64,000 nt of DNA, taken from Mayamaea pseudoterrestris (taxonomy: Eukaryota). This document shows, piece by piece, positions 1 to 29,633 of the stretch. The notes beneath the pieces were generated by a model. The model saw only the letters and a list, made by a program, of their open reading frames with translations. It had not been told where the DNA came from and made no database searches. The position numbers and the translations under genes are program-made. Position 1 is the stretch's first letter, and every line of letters begins with the position of its first letter. The stretch covers positions 186,001-250,000 of the forward strand of contig BROI01000019.1 in assembly GCA_027923505.1 (NCBI GenBank), in the 5' to 3' direction.

Positions 1-3000
1 CGCACCAAAGCGCCTCCCTTGGCGTATCTTTCTGAATTCCTCGCTGCTCACAATCCTGGCGAAGGCGTCGATCGCTACGTTCGGTTTGAGCTTGGCGGCG
101 AACTCGGCCGTTGCGCCGCTCTCGTCGACTTGTTTGGCTCCGCCGGCTACTCGGTTGAGACTACTGCACCCGACTCGTCGCACCAGAATGGCCCAGTTGA
201 ACGTCCTCATCGCACGATCGCCGCTGGCGTCCGCTCTTCCTTGATAGGTGCCGGGCTTGAACCAAAGTACTGGCCCTATGCTCTACATCATTTCCTCCGC
301 GTCTTCAATGCCACTATGCCTTGTGGGGATGACCACAAGACGCCGTTCGAACTGTGCGTCGGTCATCAACCCGACATGTCCAATTTTAAGACGTTTGGCT
401 GCCGTCTGTATGCCCTCCCTAGTCACGGCCGTTCCGCCAAAACCCTCAACGAAGCGAGGACTGGTGTTTTCCTGGGATACGCGCGGACAACCAAGAATGC
501 CCTATACCTGGACCTTGCCAATGGGCAAATCAAGACTTGCCAGCATGTCTCGTTTGACGAGTCTTTCAATGATTTGCCGTTTCACTTAAAGCCTCCCAAT
601 GCGCAACGGCTCGATACAATCCGCGATGACGCCGAGGATCAGGCAGATAATCACCCTCTGGCCCCTACCGACTTAGAGCAATCTCTTCTCGACCTCGACG
701 TTTCTCCCAACATGTTCTACCATACCACCGCCATATCAATGGCCTTGCGCGACGGCGCCATTGCGTGTGACTTTGCACAATGCGAGTACTTGTCTCGGCC
801 CTACGTGTCGGAGTTTCACTCGCTGCCTACCGCCCGCTTTCGTAGCTTTCCTGCTTTTCGCAAGAAATTTGTTGGCTCCTACGTTGGTGCCATCAACGGC
901 ACTCCTGTGTATACTGCCGACGACATCGCCGTCCAGATTGCTGCGCTTGCAGCCACGGCTCTCCATTCCGAAGTAACTCTCGACCTCGCCCCTATTGCGT
1001 CTACCGATCGTTCCCTTCGAACGACGCCTCTCCATCTCCGCCTCGCGGACATTCGCCGTATCAGCGCTCTTATTGCTGTTGATGGGGAGGGGGACAGCGC
1101 TCAGGCATATCAACGTACACTGACAGCCTTCGCGCGCGCTCCCGCAGATAGCGAGCTTCACGAAGCACTACTCGCTACGCACCGCGTAATCAACAGAATA
1201 CAAGCGCCTTGCCTCCGCCCACTTCATCGTCTCCAATCTACCACTATGACCGACGAGGAACGGCGACTGCCTAAACTGAATCGCTCCAGCCTTCGACGAT
1301 TGTCCAACTGGTCTGAATGGGATGCGGCTCACGACAAGCAAATAGATCAACACTACAAAGATGGCACCCTCGGCCTCCCGATGGCGACCCCGATGCCAGT
1401 AGACGGGAAGCGCCCGAATGTCCTACGCGTGGTTTGGTCCTTTATGGTGAAGGAAGACGGCCGGCGAAAAGCGCGTTCATGCATCGATGGATCCAAGCGC
1501 TCTGCCCCATGGCTGCGTCAATTTGCGGAAACATACGCATCCTGTATTGAATTACCATGCCAACGCCTCTTCTTTGCCCTCGCAGCCGCCAAGAATTACG
1601 TGGTCACTATCGCGGACACCACCAATGCGTATCAACAGTCGCCAGGCCCTTCGGAGCAATGCTACTTGCGCATAGACGACGCATATCGCTCCTGGTTTCG
1701 CAAACGCCATGGGCGAGATATTGATCCTGCGACTCATGTGGTTCCCATGCTCAAAGCTTTCCAAGGCCACCCTGAGGCTGGTCGCCTATGGGAACGAATG
1801 ATCGTCGGTATTCTTACGAAACTCGGCTACAAATCGACGACCCACGAGCGCAATCTATATTGCGGTACTACCGACGGCGAAGATGTGATTATATGCCGCG
1901 AAGTGGATGATTTTGCTGTTGCATCAGAGCATTCCGAGACCGCTGATATTCTGATTGGCGCCATCAACGAATTCGTCACCACGGAGAGCAAGGGGATTGG
2001 CAACAAAATTCCTGGGTACGGCATTGTCACCCGCTACAACGGCGTGGACATGATGCAAACGCGCGACTATATTAAACTGCATTGTGAGACCTATCTGGAC
2101 AGGATATTCCATAGTCATGGCTGGTCGGAACCTTCGTCCAGCGCCATGACCGTTCCGCTGACCTCGGATGTGGCTTCCAAGCTGGATAAGTTGACTGGGC
2201 CACCCGAAGGCACGCCCGCCGCGAAACTCATCGAGGACGCCGCTAATTTTGCGTATCGGCAGCTACTTGGCGAGCTTACCTACGCATACGTTATTTGCCG
2301 CCCCGACATTGGGTATGCAGTGACGTTCCTCAGTCGTTTCGCCCGCCATCCTGCCGGGGAGCATTTTACGGCGCTGAAGAACGTGTGCCGATACCTGCGA
2401 GGGACCAAAACATGGGGAATCATGTACTGGCGTCCTGCGCCTCGCACTGACCTTCCTGCTGTGGCACACACTGTTCCACCTGCCGATCCTGCTTCAGTCC
2501 TATTGCCCGCGTTTCCTACTTCGAGGCTCCTCGAACTAGTCGGATTTGTCGACGCCGCTCACGCGACTGAGTCCACCACTCGCCGGTCAGTTACTGGCTA
2601 CTCCTTCAACTTTGCTGGTGGCGCCATTGCCTACAAATCCAAGCTCCAAGCTACTGTCGCCACGTCTTCTACGGAAGCGGAGTTCATTGCTGCTGTTCAC
2701 GCCGCCAAGACCGCCAAATACTTGCGCTCCGTCCTACAGGACCTTGGTTTTCCACCACCAGGTCCAACCTTGCTCTATGAAGACAACCAGGCCACAATCG
2801 CCATGGTCAACAGCAATCGCCCTACCGTTCGCTCTCGGCATATCGACGTTCAGTACTTCGCAATCCAGGAATGGCGCGCCCGCCGCATTGTTGAGCTTGC
2901 GCATATTCCCGGCGTTATCAATCCAGCCGATCAACTCACTAAAGCGCTCGGATGGGTCCTTCATGCCCGCCATGCGCGACGTGCCATGGGACATTTCGGC

Positions 3001-22746: not shown

Positions 22747-24834
22747 TCACTCAGGAATGCTAGTATCCAGTTCTTCAACTAGCCTTGCCCTCATTTCAGC
22801 AATCGAGTCGGCCAGATCTGCTGCCTCCTCGCTTGTCATGCCTTTTCGGAGACCGAGCTTGTCATCGCCGGCGGCAGCCTGCAGCTTTGCGTAGACACCT
22901 TCTAGAAATTGAGTATTCTCATCGTTGCCAGAAAGTCTCTTGACCGGTGCTGACGCTTCAGGCGCCCTTTCAGTTGCCGCGGAGGCTTGCTGCTCCGGAC
23001 CCTCAATAATGTTGCCTAGTGTCTTCTCCGCCGACACAAAGGCTGCACGTAGAGTCACTAATACTGGCTGCTGCAGTTCCGGTGGACTATTCTTGTACAC
23101 CTGACATGCTGCCTCAATGCAGGCAATCATGCTTCCGACGCGTTCACTAGACGATTGACCGACTGTTGTTGATGCTGCTACGGATGGCCGGCTGGTGCTG
23201 TCACCACCGACAATCGCATCCAGACTCGACACTGCTGATGCCAGCGCCGCGCGCAGCACGCCTAGAACAGATGGCTGAAGTTCTGCCGGACTATTCTTGT
23301 ACATGGTGATGGCGCCTTCCAGTACAACAATGAGACTGTTCACCTTTGTATTCGTGGCCGCGTCACCAGCTCCTTGCCCCATGCTCTGAGGAGCCGACTG
23401 CGTCGCCGACACAGCCGCTGGTACTGAAACACCTTCCTCCTTCAACACTTGCACGAGAACGGTGGACAGGTTTTTGAAAAGGTCGATTTCGTCGCCCTTT
23501 AATCGACCAGCGCCAAAGCCAGGTCCGCCCCGGTGCTTCAAAAGTAGACCCATCAACGTACGAATGTCGGAACGCTTATCATCCTCGGATGGCGGTGCAG
23601 GGTTCGCGGATGGAGTATTAGTTTGCTGCTGCTGTTGCGGCGGCGTGGAGGCGACTGGAGCTTGCGCCTCTGATGCCGGAGCAGCAGGAGTTGGTGCCAC
23701 TCTAAATTGTTGCGTGGAAGGTGCCGACGTCTCCGCAGCAGCAGCATTACCACTGCTCGTCGATGTTGCTGCCTCTGACCCTTGATTTGCCATTGTTCGT
23801 TCTCTCATTTGCTTCATCTTTTCCTTGTAACTAATGCCCGAATAATCCAATGGCACTGGCTTTGACGGCGCCAAGTATTCCGGTTTAAGCATTTCATCCA
23901 TGGACGTTTCCACGGCACCTTGATCAAGTCGCTTGCGCTCCTCCAAGTACGGATTGACTCGCTCCTCAATCTCTTTAATGGACGGATCCTCGAAAACAGC
24001 ATTGGCTTTTTGCGCATCACCCGCCAGCCATGCCTCCTTGCGAATGGCCGAGTCGCGCTTGAGCTGCGCAAAGTACAAGTCGGCCGAGTTTTGAATCTGG
24101 TCCGCGTCGCGGTTGCGGCCGACGCGGCGGCCGTCGGGCGCCAGTACGGCGCCCTGCGGAGGAAAGGCTTGCGGAAAGTTGCCGGGAGTGTTGCGTGATG
24201 GTATTCCTTGGGGTGATGGTTGTTGTTGCTGCTGATTGCCGGCAATCATGCTACGAAACAGCTCGGCCTGCTGCTCGACGGTTAATCCAGCAAGTGCGTC
24301 GGGTGAAATGGCAGCTGCCGATGAAGCGTCTGATTGCACCGGACTCGCTGCCTGCGGCTGGTATGGTTCCACCGTCATTCCCGATGGCATGTTGTTTGGC
24401 GATGCTGCTCCAGAAAATGAACCCCCTTGCGCTTGCCGCTGCTGCGCCTTTTGCAGTAGCTCCTTGAACATGGTTCCACCTTGCGACTCGTCCTTTTCGT
24501 TTTGCTCCTTGATGCGCTGCTTCATTTCCTCGGTAATGACTGCTCCCTTGGTGCCGTCGAGTGGAATCTCGTCGTCGTCGGGAGGAGGCGGCGGCATGTT
24601 GACCAAGTCCTTGCCGAAGCGTGACTGCGCGTAGTAGTCCTCCGTGACGCGCTCGCGCTCGTTTGGATCGGCGGATAGTGAATTGAGGAAATCGTCATTG
24701 TCCCAGCCTTGACCGACGGAGAGTGAAGATTTTGAACGTTGTGTAGAAGTTGATAGTGGCGTCGTCCATGCGATGATTGTTGGAGCGGCGGCGATGGAGA
24801 GGAGAGTGCAAAGGCTGATTGCTGTTATCCTCAT
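22747..24834 (-). CDS. Hypothetical protein, probably plastid-targeted, with an internal duplicated helical domain
   Basis: Signal peptide ending IIA-W plus an S/T-rich transit peptide; two YKNSPxELQ repeats. Confidence 0.75.
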   Translation of the reverse strand: MRITAISLCTLLSIAAAPTIIAWTTPLSTSTQRSKSSLSVGQGWDNDDFLNSLSADPNERERVTEDYYAQSRFGKDLVNMPPPPPDDDEIPLDGTKGAVITEEMKQRIKEQNEKDESQGGTMFKELLQKAQQRQAQGGSFSGAASPNNMPSGMTVEPYQPQAASPVQSDASSAAAISPDALAGLTVEQQAELFRSMIAGNQQQQQPSPQGIPSRNTPGNFPQAFPPQGAVLAPDGRRVGRNRDADQIQNSADLYFAQLKRDSAIRKEAWLAGDAQKANAVFEDPSIKEIEERVNPYLEERKRLDQGAVETSMDEMLKPEYLAPSKPVPLDYSGISYKEKMKQMRERTMANQGSEAATSTSSGNAAAAETSAPSTQQFRVAPTPAAPASEAQAPVASTPPQQQQQTNTPSANPAPPSEDDKRSDIRTLMGLLLKHRGGPGFGAGRLKGDEIDLFKNLSTVLVQVLKEEGVSVPAAVSATQSAPQSMGQGAGDAATNTKVNSLIVVLEGAITMYKNSPAELQPSVLGVLRAALASAVSSLDAIVGGDSTSRPSVAASTTVGQSSSERVGSMIACIEAACQVYKNSPPELQQPVLVTLRAAFVSAEKTLGNIIEGPEQQASAATERAPEASAPVKRLSGNDENTQFLEGVYAKLQAAAGDDKLGLRKGMTSEEAADLADSIAEMRARLVEELDTSIPE

Positions 24835-25140
24835 CCTGTCTCTGCTATCTGCTGCTGTCAAGACAAATAGAGATTGAATAGATTCCGTTTAATTATGCTC
24901 GTTGGAAAAAGATTGATGGCAAGATCAAGTTCTGCTTGCCGTGACGAACGACTGGAAGCGAGGAGAGCGCCATCGTCGTGACGACCTTTGGCGCGCGAGC
25001 GATCATAAGCGTGAATGAAATCCGGTCGTGTTTGACGCTCTGTTTCGTGGATACTTGGGGCGAAACGTCAACCACCAACACCCATCAAAATCTAATTCGA
25101 CCATGGCGATGTGTCCCCACTTTTTCTTATATTGAACACT

Positions 25141-27938
25141 ATGACGATGCTCAAGACTTTCATAATAACGATGATGTCGATGTCTATACTACTGAGATCG
25201 ACTGCTTTTCAAAACTCAGCTTCATTCCTGAGACACCAAAGATCCCAATCATTTCAAAACACCCGACGAACAGTTTCATCCTTTCATCGCTATACATTCA
25301 AAGCCGTTTCGGCATCTACCAATAATGCTCACCTCGTGCAGCAACGCATCCAGGCAGCCCGAGAGAAAAGCGATGCTCGAAAACGTTCGTCACAGGCCAG
25401 AACGCTTCGACACTTGCACGTCAAGCAACTGCTACAAGACAATGACAGCAACAATAGCAATTCATCTACAACAACAACAGTTACACCACCCCCACTCTAT
25501 CAACTCAAAGTAACAGTCTGTGAAGACCTTCGCAAAGACTTGCTGCTGAGTGGTCGAGAGAAGCGAGGACGCGTCTTTGTCGAGCAATCATCCAACGCCA
25601 CTCAGTCGCTCAAGGCGCTCCAAATGGAGCTGCACGGCTTTTTTCGGGCGCTCCGCAAGGGCTCCTATCTACTTTCGGCTGGCTATCCAGTGATTGAAAC
25701 GGATGGAACCATATCAACTGGAGACTTGGATGAAACATGGCCAATTCGCAATGATGAGGATGTTGTCGATATGTTTCGACGAGCCGACGCGTTCTTTGCC
25801 AAGCATGGCAGCAGCAAAAACAACACGACATTTACTTTGAAGCGACCATCGCTCGTCGTTTACGTCCAGCGCGATCCGGACGCTCCTGCCCCTCCACCTT
25901 TACCAGAATATCTACTAGACTTGCCCGATCCAAGCGCAAGTCCAACCATGACAATGCTTTCCTTTTACAGCTTTCCGCCAACCGGCATACACAATCCCGA
26001 AGAGTTTGCCCGACTGCTAAAGTCGCTGTGGAAGCCATTCTCCGCCCTTGGTCGCATTTACGTGGCGCCCGAAGGCGTCAATGCGCAAATGAGTGTTCCG
26101 ACCAACGTTTTGGAGCGCTTCATTGAGTGCTGTCACTCCATTCCGGAGCTTGGCGAATACATGGAGAATGGCATTAACATTGATCCTGTTGCAATATCGC
26201 GCGAGGAGTTTTTCAATGACAGCGAGCAGCCACCGCCGTTTACCAATCTACATGTGCGCGTCCGGAGCAAAATTGTGGCGGACGGACTCGACAAGGCGTA
26301 CGAGTGGCAGCAAGCAGGCTACGACATGCCACCTCTGGAGTGGCACGAAACGCTAAAGCAGGCACGAGAGTTGAAACGACAAGGCCATGAGGAGCAAGCT
26401 CCCATTGTGCTAGACTTTCGCAATGTTTATGAAACGGATGTTGGTCGTTTCGACGGAGCCGAGCCACTTGGTACGACCAACTTTCGCGAAAGCTGGGACG
26501 TTGTGAATGAGCGACTGGCAAGTGTTGACAAAAGTACGCCCATTCTGATGTACTGCACGGGAGGAATTCGATGCGTCAAGGCGGGTGCCTACGTGACGCA
26601 GGAGCTGGGCTTCACCAACGTTTCGCGATTGGCTGGCGGCATTATTGCCTATGATCGCATTTTGCGAGAAAAGGCGGAGGACGAGGAAAGCATGTTCAAG
26701 GGCACCAACTTTGTCTTTGATAACCGGCTGGGACGGCAAATTACGGATGATGCTTTAGGAACCTGCTTGACTTGCGGCGGCGAAACTGCCCTGGTTAGCA
26801 ACTGCCGCAATGAAAACTGCCACAAGAGAATGGTTCAGTGTGAACAGGTGAGGAGTGAAGGAATGATGGCACGTATGTGTAGCTGCGAGCTCGACTGCTG
26901 ACCAACATATTCCTACCTTTGTCGTAGTGTCGAACAAATATGAGAGGAACTTGCTCTGACGCTTGTCAGAATCGCGTGATCAATGGTGAGATGCGACCGC
27001 TTCGGGCGCCTCGATTTAGTGCATATGATGTTGGGACCGAGGCACCAGTTGTATATACGAACCTCGACCAGTATAGTTTGGGTCATTCAACTCCTCCTTC
27101 CTCGATTTACAATGAGATGGAATTGAACACACGAGCGCTAATTCCTTCAGGCTCTCACATGGTGAGTGGAGCAGCTCAAGGCCGGCTTTTAACTCAGCTG
27201 TCATCCATGACAAGAGAAGGACGAATACTCGAGCTTGGCACGTTTACAGGATACGCAACTGTTTGTCTGCTGGAAGGTGCAATGAATGTCGGCAATCTTC
27301 TTGACAGTAGCAGTGGATCGCGAGGATTACGCGAGAGTGGACCTTACGTACTTACAATGGAGCGAGACACTGTGGCATTTAATGTTGCTGCTGCTCATCT
27401 CAAAGTAATTGCAGAGCACGGCCTGGGCGATTCTGCCGCAGAAAATATGTGTCAATATCGAGCTTCCGGCATGCCTAGTTTGCCGAGTGAACCTCTTGTG
27501 ACGTTGGATTGTCAAGGCATCGCTACCTGCGAACTCATGCAAGTTTCGGATGCACTGGCAACAATTGAAGAAATGGCGGCTGGAAAAGGCGACATTCTCC
27601 CAGGTCCATTTGATTTGATCTTTGTTGACGCCGACAAGACTCGTCTTCTGGACTACGCCGAAGCTTGTCTATCGAGCGATCGGCTGCTAAAGAAAGGAGG
27701 CTTACTGGTTGTCGACAATGTGTTGTGGAAAGGCCTCGTCCTCGAGGCTAGCACCGGTAACTTCTCGTCATTACGCGAGACGGATGAGACGGGAGAGGAT
27801 GAATTGCGAAAGAATCGTCGAGCTAGAAAGCTGGCCATGAAGATGCATCGATTCAATAGTGCTATCGTCCAAGATACTCGCGCTGAAGTGCTAGTGCTGC
27901 CAATGCGTGATGGACTGAGTGTCATACGGAAGAAGTAG
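25141..27938 (+). CDS. trhO: TrhO (UPF0176 rhodanese) - class I O-methyltransferase fusion, ~905 aa, putatively plastid-targeted; intron 26848-26927
   Basis: TrhO motifs GRIYVAPEGVN, DFRNVYE..GRF, YCTGGIRC, LAGGI..Y, FKGTNFVFDNR. A phase-0 intron joins QCEQ|CRTNMRGTCSDAC. Methyltransf_3 motifs LELGTFTGY, FDLIFVDADK, GGLLVVDNVLWKG, LPMRDGL. Confidence 0.9.
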
Positions 27939-28262
27939 ACTGGATGATAGCATTAATCGAAATGCATAATTACGGAACTAACTATAAAAAAACCTTGGCT
28001 CAACACATATCTCTCTCCTTGGCCATAAATTGTACATTCCTTGCGGCATCTATCTTCGCTCTAGTGCTCCATCTAAGTTGCAAAGGATTACTTCTTGTCT
28101 CCTCTAAGAGACTACATAGCAGCAGAGGTATTATTTCAATAACGCTGCCGCGGAAGGAAAGCTTTCTAACATACACAGCTGAAGTCATTTATAGTCGCGT
28201 ATTGGCGGACGTTCGGAACTGCCTCTGCTGCATTAATAACCAACAACCAGCGTTTTTTCTGT

Positions 28263-29633
28263 CTACAATTTAAAGTGAGCTGCATAACGCTTCAGTATTT
28301 CCTGATAGATCTGTCGGTCATCCGACTCGGAATCCGGATGAAACACAAGATCCTTGATCCAAAGCGTTGCACGGTGCGATATCCGTTGACTCTCGGCTTG
28401 ATGCTGCAGCATCCACTGGATCATTTCTTCAACATTGGACAAGTCGCTACTGAATGGAATGTAGTGCACCCACGGCTCCAACAACTCCTCCATGGCCCAT
28501 GACGTGAACTTTGGCGGTGGCATTAACACAACCGATTGCGACAGCAACGCCCACTTGAGTCCGGACGAAACGTCGTTGCCTTCCAAAATGATGATGCCCT
28601 TGTAGCGCAACATTTCGTAAAGAGGCAGCTCGGGACCAACAAGGTTAACTCCGTTGACATGCGGTGGTAAATGATTTAACAGCTTTGTCAACTTGGCGTC
28701 AATGAGACTGGAAGATGCGTATTGGTATGCGAGCTGGCAGCGAGGAAGCTCGAAACAGTCAATCGTGTGATTCTGCAAGCCCTTACCAGTGGCAGCTCCC
28801 CGAAAAATGGCCATGTTTCTTTTATCCTTCCAGTGTCTATCGTTTCGTGGAACGAGATATAGATCGCGATAGTGGCGCTTGGCGTTTAGCTTCCAAATGA
28901 TTGGCTGAATGTTGTGTTTGCTTTGGCGCAAGTCGTGGCACTTTGCAGGACGCGCCTGCGCCACCACGTCCAGCGTCTGATCTCGTTTTGGTCGAGATGC
29001 TCGAAACTTTTTGACGTGTGGCACTATTGGATCGTAGAGCAGCTCATGGCCATTCGCACTGTACGCTCGTGCATAGTCCTCATCGCCAAACTGCATCAGA
29101 ATTGGAATGTGCTCGTTCCATGAAATGGTAGTTTTGGCCTCTCTAATCGTTGCAAGACTCTCGGAGCAGTACGGCCCAATCGGCCATTTTCGGTGACTGC
29201 ATTCTGCAAGTGACTCTGGATTGTAGTAGAAAATGGTTGATACCTCGACATGCGGTCGAACGCCAAAGACGCGAGGTTGATGCGTATCATTCATTGCCAT
29301 TTCTGTAACGTATACAATGTCGCTGCCAGCCTCTAATTGTCGATGCACAACCTTTTCTCCGCCACATGATTCAGCGAACCAATCTCCCATGTACAATTCG
29401 ACTCGTTCTTGAACAGACGGAAATCGATAGGGTCGAAAGTCGCGTTCCGTTCTTGATTGATACGACGGCACGATAAAGTAGGTTGATCGACCGAGCTGGA
29501 ACAACAAGAGACATGCAACTAAAATCTGTAGAGCTTTAGTTTGCACCAAATCTCGAAATGATCTTCTTCTTGCGTCATAAGTCTTGTCTTTTGATGAGCG
29601 AGGCAGCGCTTGTCGTCGGTTGGACAAGGCCAT
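28263..29633 (-). CDS. Glycosyltransferase family 90 (CAP10/KDELC-like), type II membrane protein
   Basis: N-terminal TM; WKDK...IFRGAATG; YKGIIILEGNDVSSGLKWAL; LEPWVHYIP. Confidence 0.88.
   Translation of the reverse strand: MALSNRRQALPRSSKDKTYDARRRSFRDLVQTKALQILVACLLLFQLGRSTYFIVPSYQSRTERDFRPYRFPSVQERVELYMGDWFAESCGGEKVVHRQLEAGSDIVYVTEMAMNDTHQPRVFGVRPHVEVSTIFYYNPESLAECSHRKWPIGPYCSESLATIREAKTTISWNEHIPILMQFGDEDYARAYSANGHELLYDPIVPHVKKFRASRPKRDQTLDVVAQARPAKCHDLRQSKHNIQPIIWKLNAKRHYRDLYLVPRNDRHWKDKRNMAIFRGAATGKGLQNHTIDCFELPRCQLAYQYASSSLIDAKLTKLLNHLPPHVNGVNLVGPELPLYEMLRYKGIIILEGNDVSSGLKWALLSQSVVLMPPPKFTSWAMEELLEPWVHYIPFSSDLSNVEEMIQWMLQHQAESQRISHRATLWIKDLVFHPDSESDDRQIYQEILKRYAAHFKL

Follow-up and report, generated by a model that had tools for sequence, protein, structure and literature searches.

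A TrhO–O-methyltransferase fusion with a PB1-like N-terminal module in Mayamaea pseudoterrestris: a candidate plastid route to 5-methoxyuridine

Introduction

Wobble modifications of the 5-oxyuridine type (xo5U), carried at uridine 34 (U34) of transfer RNA (tRNA), are a textbook feature of bacteria, and organelles are usually said to use an unmodified U34. The closest described pathway is that of Bacillus subtilis, where 5-methoxyuridine (mo5U) is made at position 34 in two steps: hydroxylation to 5-hydroxyuridine (ho5U) by TrhO (YbfQ) or by TrhP1/P2, and then methylation by TrmR (YrrM) (as set out in passages of PMC6158493, PMC6599085 and PMC7408541). The locus studied here lies at positions 25,141 to 27,938 of a 64,000-nucleotide stretch of Mayamaea pseudoterrestris DNA (GenBank assembly GCA_027923505.1, contig BROI01000019.1, positions 186,001 to 250,000 of the forward strand), which we call the window and to which all coordinates below refer. 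It encodes a TrhO module followed by an O-methyltransferase module. The chemistry of the B. subtilis route, as these sources describe it, is an O2-dependent hydroxylation followed by an O-methylation that depends on S-adenosylmethionine (SAM) and a metal, and its catalytic loop and metal ligands match those of the Mayamaea protein; whereas the Bacillus enzymes are separate proteins, however, both modules are found on one chain in Mayamaea.

A fusion of this kind is already on record. Passages of Sakai et al. 2019 (Nat Commun 10:2858, PMC6599085) report a yceA (trhO)-trmR fusion in Phaeodactylum tricornutum, Phytophthora sojae and P. ramorum, use it as a guilt-by-association clue for picking yceA as the second hydroxylase, and add that xo5U-type modifications may also occur in eukaryotes, given the trhO homologues found there. 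An earlier note on this DNA (hereafter the original prediction) had taken the fusion to be undescribed in a eukaryote, a claim that has to be withdrawn, as Phaeodactylum and Phytophthora are both named in that paper, albeit with the three fusion organisms labelled 'bacterial species'. The Phaeodactylum protein has the same domain order as that of Mayamaea, TrhO followed by Methyltransf_3. Where these passages deal with the fusion, they describe neither a gene model nor a targeting signal, and they mention no N-terminal module, no taxonomic spread and no eukaryotic test. Among the open-access papers and preprints searched, we found no other paper mentioning the fusion, none testing it in a eukaryote, no report of ho5U or mo5U in plastid tRNA, and none linking COMTD1 with TSTD2. 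The core idea, that the fusion implies a coupled and possibly eukaryotic pathway, is already published in outline, and the gain of the present work is one of detail and testability: it adds the spread of the fusion over the red lineage, a presequence pattern, the absence of 210 N-terminal residues from the deposited gene model, a PB1-like module, and a methyltransferase nearer to the type represented by the solved structures 3cbg and 3tr6 than to TrmR.

Results and Discussion

Splicing and Start of the Gene

The list of open reading frames (ORFs) gives two of them on the plus strand of the locus, 25141..26901 (586 amino acids, aa) and 26940..27938 (332 aa). These are parts of one nuclear gene, which is spliced once and encodes an in-frame fusion. 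Judged by its sequence, the product belongs to a red-lineage family of TrhO-O-methyltransferase fusions and carries an N-terminal module that looks PB1-like and is absent from Pfam. The gene is laid out as follows:

25141..26847, plus strand: exon 1, codons 1-569, starting at the first in-frame ATG; 25100..26845 is covered without gaps by a contig of the public run X2
26848..26927, plus strand: intron of 80 nucleotides (nt), phase 0, GTGAGG...CTGAC...TCGTAG
26928..27938, plus strand: exon 2, codons 570-905 and the TAG stop at 27936..27938

The intron begins with GTGAGG at 26848, has CTGAC at offset 51 and ends with TCGTAG at 26927; exon 1 closes on a codon boundary after 569 codons and exon 2 continues in frame, so that splicing yields a product of 905 aa. 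The region is covered by four small public runs of one study, whose records do not state whether RNA or DNA was sequenced, and contigs of two of them give evidence for the splice. A contig of run X2 (2002 nt) matches 25100..26845 and 26926..27181, leaving out 80 nt bounded by GT and AG (with the cut moved by two positions, exactly 26848..26927). A contig of run X3 (571 nt) has the same joint, the shorter flank of which is just 23 nt long, and a contig of run X1 (225 nt, 26766..26990) retains the intron. The spliced contigs are about 4% divergent from the window (71 other letters across 25100..26845) and therefore originate from another strain or allele. Moreover, the deposited protein P0003 (hypothetical protein MPSEU_000832100, 695 aa) consists of residues 211-569 of exon 1 plus exon 2; it uses the same junction, and the splice had therefore been annotated previously. 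An 80-nt phase-0 intron joining both frames had been proposed in the original prediction, together with the idea that the splice completes the Cys-rich C-terminal domain of TrhO, and both proposals are borne out. The Rhodanese_C profile of Pfam is matched over positions 1-66 of 66 (61.6 bits) by the spliced product and over 1-52 of 66 (47.7 bits) by exon 1 alone, and three of the eight cysteines of the domain are encoded in exon 2.

The ATG at 25141 is the first in frame after a TAA stop at 25093. The deposited model begins at Met211 and thus omits 210 N-terminal residues (window 25141-25770), which hold the presequence, the conserved basic helix (residues 62-107) and most of the domain at residues 115-248. 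We rejected Met211 as the start, since the 630 nt upstream of it are in frame, conserved in orthologues, confidently folded in structure prediction and contained in the X2 contig, which extends from 25100. Localisation predictions run on the deposited, truncated model would consequently mislead. A 10-codon upstream ORF in another frame (ATG at 25104, TGA at 25134) lies just 5' of the start and may be transcribed, as the X2 contig begins at 25100.

The Hydroxylase Half

The first enzyme module has the complete domain set of TrhO, distributed over both exons:

25951..26274, plus strand: UPF0176_N, acylphosphatase-like, residues 271-378 (Pfam PF17773, 6.1e-16)
26368..26649, plus strand: Rhodanese, residues 410-503 (Pfam PF00581, 1.7e-07)
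26554..26574, plus strand: active-site loop CTGGIRC, residues 472-478 (position of the motif)
26698..26969, plus strand, interrupted by the intron: Rhodanese_C Cys-rich domain, residues 520-583 (Pfam, 1.9e-12)

All three domains score above their Pfam cut-offs, in agreement with the domain calls of the original prediction. Conservation was evaluated in an alignment of 77 fused orthologues, where every residue of the CTGGIRC loop is invariant (77/77), as are all eight cysteines of Rhodanese_C (77/77), located at positions 542, 545, 555, 560 and 567 in exon 1 and at 570, 578 and 582 in exon 2. In the E. coli enzyme, C200, T201, G203 and R205 of this loop are essential, according to passages of PMC6599085, and a preprint, in the part that concerns metal content, gives about two zinc bound per TrhO protein (bioRxiv 10.1101/2025.11.10.687516).

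The best NCBIfam match of the exon 1 product is the TrhO equivalog NF001133 (2.9e-48), and the nearest solved relative of the TrhO part is 9j5o, entitled 'tRNA uridine(34) hydroxylase' (4.9e-21). Residues H371, R373 and R375 (H161, R163 and R165 in P0003) are at least 90% conserved and are aligned opposite basic residues of 9j5o; they may be the equivalents of K112 and R114, which are basic residues of the N-domain beta-sheet in E. coli TrhO. In addition, the AlphaFold2 (AF2) model of P0003 (m804523065340) has a mean predicted local distance difference test score (pLDDT) of 90.4, with values of 83-93 in the Cys-rich domain across the splice junction.

The O-Methyltransferase Half

The second enzyme module follows after a short linker and is encoded entirely in exon 2:

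26991..27038, plus strand: flexible linker between the two enzymes, residues 591-606 (the only segment with pLDDT below 50, residues 381-396 of the P0003 model)
27051..27935, plus strand: Methyltransf_3 O-methyltransferase, residues 611-905 (Pfam PF01596, 9.5e-28, 97.3 bits against a cut-off of 22)
27228..27254, plus strand: SAM motif LELGTFTGY, invariant in the 77-orthologue alignment
27624..27638, plus strand: metal-ligand motif VDADK, its first Asp being a predicted ligand
27708..27722, plus strand: metal-ligand motif VVDNV, its Asp-Asn being predicted ligands

The domain spans positions 4-213 of 213 in a profile of its Bacteroidota relatives, and the putative ligands (D593, D622 and N623 in P0003 numbering) are invariant (77/77). 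They correspond to the Mg ligands of TrmR, given as Asp133, Asp159 and Asn160 in passages of Ryu et al. (PMC6158493). With the SAM motif and the metal triad both in place, the Methyltransf_3 assignment of the original prediction stands. The pTM (predicted template modelling score) of the P0003 model is 0.59, which leaves the relative orientation of TrhO and methyltransferase undefined.

How closely this module is related to TrmR was judged by rankings against solved structures and by a tree of 102 methyltransferase domains. Among solved structures, the Mayamaea domain scores best with 3cbg (65.7 bits, 3.9e-17), followed by 2hnk (60.2 bits), 5lhm (54.8 bits) and human COMTD1, 2avd (54.2 bits). 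Taken together with the search made with its Bacteroidota relatives, the highest-scoring solved relatives are 3cbg, 3tr6, 5lhm, 3r3h and 2hnk, all with 'O-methyltransferase' as PDB title; TrmR stands well below them and other Methyltransf_3 enzymes in likeness. The original prediction had placed the module in the family of TrmR: this is correct at the level of Pfam and COG, and several orthologues were in fact named 'predicted O-methyltransferase YrrM' by JGI, but it does not extend to close likeness, as the B. subtilis structure 5zw3 ranks only 22nd of 44, behind 3cbg, 2hnk, 5lhm and COMTD1. That the methyltransferase probably acts in the manner of TrmR is therefore argued from the fusion and not from orthology.

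Enzymes of the 3cbg/3tr6 type share the fold family and the metal triad with the Mayamaea module, but each is a separate protein of roughly 220-240 aa, with no TrhO attached. They have been assayed on catechols, they also occur in cyanobacteria, and 3cbg itself is, we assume, SynOMT of Synechocystis. In the RNA of the cyanobacterium Synechocystis, mo5U has been detected (PMC12860351), a finding that fits the idea of methyltransferases of this subfamily acting on ho5U.

For the tree, fragments with low profile coverage and near-duplicates were left out. Diatoms, Triparma and P0131 formed a clade with a support of 100, and the fused eukaryotic forms were separated, with weak support (SH-aLRT 80-88), from a cluster of 25 rows; 22 of these rows resemble the Bacteroidota proteins in standing alone and in being no longer than 230 aa. 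Nested among the TrhO-fused eukaryotic forms were also P0170, P0188, P0215, P0138, P0146, P0150, P0153 and P0155, which comprise two SpoU fusions, one N6/N4 methylase fusion and tandem pairs.

The Region Upstream of TrhO

The residues missing from the deposited model contain four elements:

25141..25206, plus strand: signal-peptide-like N-terminus, residues 1-22, hydrophobic, with STA before Phe23 (best Kyte-Doolittle 10-residue mean 2.07; [AGSC]F at 22/23)
25207..25314, plus strand: Ser/Arg-rich, acid-poor stretch, residues 23-58, a putative transit-peptide-like part, unconserved in the alignment
25324..25461, plus strand: conserved basic helix, residues 62-107 (AF2 helix at model residues 3-48, with pLDDT blocks of 92-98 dropping to 81)
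25483..25884, plus strand: PB1-like beta-grasp domain, residues 115-248 (AF2 model and structural matches)

The N-terminus resembles the plastid type postulated in the original prediction, with a hydrophobic stretch followed by STA and Phe. Bipartite plastid presequences of diatoms (ASAFAP type) consist of a signal peptide, cleaved just ahead of Phe (or Trp, Tyr or Leu), and a transit-peptide-like stretch behind it. To see how common the pattern is, a crude rule (a 10-residue window with a hydrophobic mean of at least 2.0, then [AGSC]F) was applied to 94 orthologue models beginning with Met and containing the GRE[KR]RGR motif, 58 of which have at least 115 residues before that motif. The window protein conforms to the rule, as do 29 of the 58 long N-termini, against 5.2 of 58 after shuffling; among the 36 shorter models, a single one does. 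The rule is imperfect in both directions: P0093, P0097 and P0098 are doubtful passes, with the Phe inside the hydrophobic stretch, and clear cases such as P0034 and P0040 are missed. On these grounds, the Mayamaea fusion is probably targeted to the plastid.

A Met stands directly before the conserved helix (M-I-P-S-N-Q-E-L-V) in many diatom orthologues, such as P0017, P0033, P0065, P0078, P0084, P0087 and P0089, and 36 of the 94 models start near it; these may be truncated gene calls, or may reflect a second start without the plastid signal. The Mayamaea protein has no Met at this position.

The basic helix has the consensus N..LV..RL...R.K..AR in the orthologue alignments. An AF2 model of residues 60-268 (mbc8b489021a1, built on 72 sequences) reached a mean pLDDT of 91.7 and a pTM of 0.82. 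When it was compared with 48,161 chains by VIA-align, the top eight rows were all PB1 domains or PB1-containing fragments, matching within model range 56..189 with 82-102 residues aligned overall; the best was 1wmh_B (Z 9.3, root-mean-square deviation 2.3, 82/82 residues) and the eighth PB1-p62 (Z 7.1), where a Z of 8-9 only modestly exceeds the background of 7-8 stated for the tool. Foldseek returned nothing at E<=0.001 for the N-domain, its best rows being PB1 or ubiquitin-like, and Pfam at E<=0.01 found no family, PB1 included, in residues 1-270. As the PB1 fold is matched and the Pfam PB1 sequence family is not, we call the domain PB1-like and not a member of that family. It shares the beta-grasp fold with the PB1 domains of PKC iota/Par6, NBR1, MAP2K5/MEKK3, Cdc24 and p62, and differs from them in having additional inserted strands as well as in lacking a Pfam PB1 match. 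PB1 is a protein-protein interaction module of signalling proteins, and we know of no report of it in tRNA-modifying enzymes.

A profile of the PB1-like domain (63 rows, with nine non-diatom rows left out) detected it ahead of TrhO in 12 of 29 further eukaryotic members (E<=1e-3), including Pelagomonas, Phaeothamnion, Scytosiphon, Chattonella, Cyanidiococcus and Rhodosorus, and in none of five Bacteroidota TrhO proteins; unlike the Mayamaea protein, the five bacterial TrhO proteins tested have neither basic helix nor PB1-like domain. As a guess, helix and domain might serve in tRNA binding or oligomerisation.

Relatives and Their Distribution

Precomputed Pfam annotation lists PF01596 beside TrhO-type domains in 100 of the best 120 relatives of the TrhO part, and our own methyltransferase profile is positive in 110 of these 120, the other 10 being mostly short models. 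When 1.84 billion representatives were searched with the methyltransferase part, Pfam analysis of 47 longer matches found TrhO-type domains in 26, fusion to SpoU_methylase in two, fusion to N6_N4_Mtase in one, and several tandem pairs. Among the matches listed, the fusion is present in many diatoms, Triparma, Epipyxis, Ochromonadaceae CCMP2298, Phaeothamnion, Chattonella, Pelagomonas and the chromerid Vitrella, and in red algae of five classes (Rhodosorus; Porphyridium; Cyanidiococcus; Chondrus, Gracilaria, Gracilariopsis and Agarophyton; Pyropia). It is also present in MMETSP transcript ORFs. All named taxa with the fusion among these matches are red algae or algae with red-derived plastids, a distribution that fits a plastid role. 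No row from Phytophthora or another oomycete occurs among the matches listed, many of which are unnamed, and this leaves the published oomycete fusion neither supported nor contradicted.

Again among the matches listed, the stand-alone bacterial proteins nearest to the two halves belong to Bacteroidota, and trhO was found elsewhere in the genome in four of the five Bacteroidota genomes checked. The nearest stand-alone TrhO proteins (P0374-P0419), from Flavobacterium and Chryseobacterium, have about 450 aa, against 265-352 residues in solved TrhO chains. Four rows, P0360, P0362, P0366 and P0361, depart from the common architecture: those from the brown algae Scytosiphon and Ectocarpus have TrhO domains without PF01596, which may represent loss of the methyltransferase or incomplete models, and one eukaryotic protein among the four has TrhO joined to thioredoxin-like domains.

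Function and Alternatives

From the fusion, from the conservation of the catalytic residues and from the presequence, we infer that the Mayamaea protein would synthesise mo5U on plastid tRNA. Diatom plastids share a core set of only 27 tRNA genes (PMC3971590). Each four-codon box is generally taken to be read there by a single U34 tRNA. The full explanation that we favour, as probable though by no means certain, is that of a plastid TrhO-methyltransferase making mo5U34 in two coupled steps. The signal peptide, the following Phe and the transit-like stretch would carry the protein through the four plastid membranes. In the stroma, the TrhO module, with its acylphosphatase-like part, its rhodanese loop CTGGIRC and its Cys domain, expected to bind two zinc, would use O2 to convert U34 to ho5U on the tRNAs of four-codon boxes, and the Methyltransf_3 module, held on a flexible linker of about 16 residues, would convert ho5U to mo5U with SAM and a divalent metal bound by the Asp/Asp/Asn triad. 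The modification may then help a plastid with so few tRNA genes to read a whole four-codon box with one tRNA. The N-terminal basic helix and PB1-like domain would be conserved additions to this machinery, for which tRNA binding or oligomerisation can be guessed.

Several observations weigh against this explanation. Chloroplasts are generally held to decode four-way with unmodified U34 (PMC11571807), and the Phytophthora species for which the passages of Sakai et al. give the fusion have no plastid (PMC6599085). The score of the exon 1 product alone with NF001133 is 164.4 bits, just below the cut-off of 170 of a model that is tuned to prokaryotes, and no NCBIfam family is matched by the methyltransferase part. 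With the Mayamaea domain, the TrmR structure 5zw3 reaches 33.9 bits (1.9e-7) at rank 22 of 44, and 8k1f only 22.4 bits (5.8e-4), as the last of the 44; with the profile of the Bacteroidota relatives, 3tr6 scores 213 bits, 3cbg 203, COMTD1 162 and plant CCoAOMT 156-160, ahead of TrmR with 144.6 and 8k1f with 129, and several of these higher-scoring enzymes go by the name of catechol or phenylpropanoid O-methyltransferases. Moreover, 29 of the 58 long orthologue N-termini fail the crude signal rule, some of them resembling mitochondrial presequences (e.g., P0008 and P0021), and in none of 80 Bacteroidota loci did trhO lie at a distance of 4 kb or less from the methyltransferase gene.

The alternatives differ in how much of this explanation they would leave standing. 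The idea that the two frames are separate genes and their fusion an annotation artefact can draw on the contig of run X1 that reads through the 80 nt and on the unrecorded type of the sequencing runs; yet two contigs skip exactly these 80 nt between GT and AG, an unspliced first ORF would miss three of eight invariant cysteines and could not form a complete Rhodanese_C, and transcript-derived MMETSP ORFs of other species are fused, so that we give this reading practically no chance. The labels that relatives bear in the source databases, among them 'predicted sulfurtransferase' and 'rhodanese domain containing protein', would suit a sulfurtransferase that hydroxylates no tRNA, but database names of this sort are generic, the combination of UPF0176_N, Rhodanese and Rhodanese_C with the CTGGIR loop defines the YceA/TrhO family, and the E. 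coli enzyme of this family has U34 hydroxylase activity in vitro (according to passages of PMC6599085), and the best NCBIfam match is the TrhO equivalog. We hold a sulfurtransferase to be very improbable.

More room is left for an enzyme pair in which TrhO makes ho5U while the methyltransferase acts on another acceptor, be it a small molecule of the catechol kind, a different site in RNA or a uridine that carries further modifications. The nearest solved relatives not only differ from TrmR but include entries for catechol, caffeoyl-CoA and norbelladine O-methyltransferases, and the module occurs in several contexts, also being fused to SpoU or to a DNA N6/N4 methylase domain, or arranged in tandem. 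The fusion in two relatives with SpoU, an RNA 2'-O-methylase, points in turn to RNA substrates, and the invariant metal triad is one that activates a hydroxyl for methylation; a TrhO fusion stably kept in red algae as well as in six or more classes of algae with red-derived plastids is hard to explain without a shared substrate, and we consider a different acceptor unlikely. A further reading keeps the chemistry from U34 through ho5U to mo5U and moves it to the mitochondrion, or to both organelles. It would account for the fusion in two Phytophthora species without plastids listed in the passages of Sakai et al. 2019 (PMC6599085), for the Arg/Ser-rich N-termini without a clear hydrophobic stretch in P0008, P0021, P0018 and P0086, and for the Met before the conserved helix, which could yield a second, shorter isoform in many orthologues. 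The window N-terminus and those of 29 of the 58 long orthologues, however, show the hydrophobic stretch and Phe typical of diatom plastid import, the named taxa among the matches listed are all red or red-plastid algae with no oomycete row among them, and the short models, of which 1 in 36 passes the signal rule, may be truncated gene calls. To a mitochondrial or dual location we assign a small but real chance, and a coupled, plastid-located synthesis of mo5U34 remains the explanation that we favour.

A wider proposal can be put forward only tentatively, as one that we regard as possible rather than probable: that mo5U or another xo5U is placed on the plastid wobble uridine by a PB1-like/TrhO/O-methyltransferase protein, in red algae and in every alga whose plastid is red-derived, that the 3cbg/3tr6-like type, and not TrmR, is the widespread ho5U methyltransferase, and that TSTD2 and COMTD1 of animals are a split form of the system. 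Of the animal proteins, COMTD1 is the one most like this methyltransferase type. If the proposal were true, 'superwobble by unmodified U34' would not describe red-lineage plastids, and a subfamily of 'catechol' O-methyltransferases would gain a physiological substrate. The fusion, conserved across the red plastid lineage and apparently plastid-targeted, suggests that the unmodified-U34 view may not hold for a substantial fraction of marine primary producers.

Flanking Features

The gene is flanked by two genes on the minus strand:

22747-24834, minus strand: upstream, divergent, 695 aa, low-complexity and rich in Ala, Ser, Gln and Pro, with a hydrophobic N-terminus and no Pfam match
28263-29633, minus strand: downstream, convergent, 456 aa, with a Glyco_transf_90 domain (8.2e-16)

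Between the stop codon and the downstream gene, at 28166-28255, one contig of run X1 skips 88 nt with TA..TT ends, which is probably a length difference between strains and not an intron.

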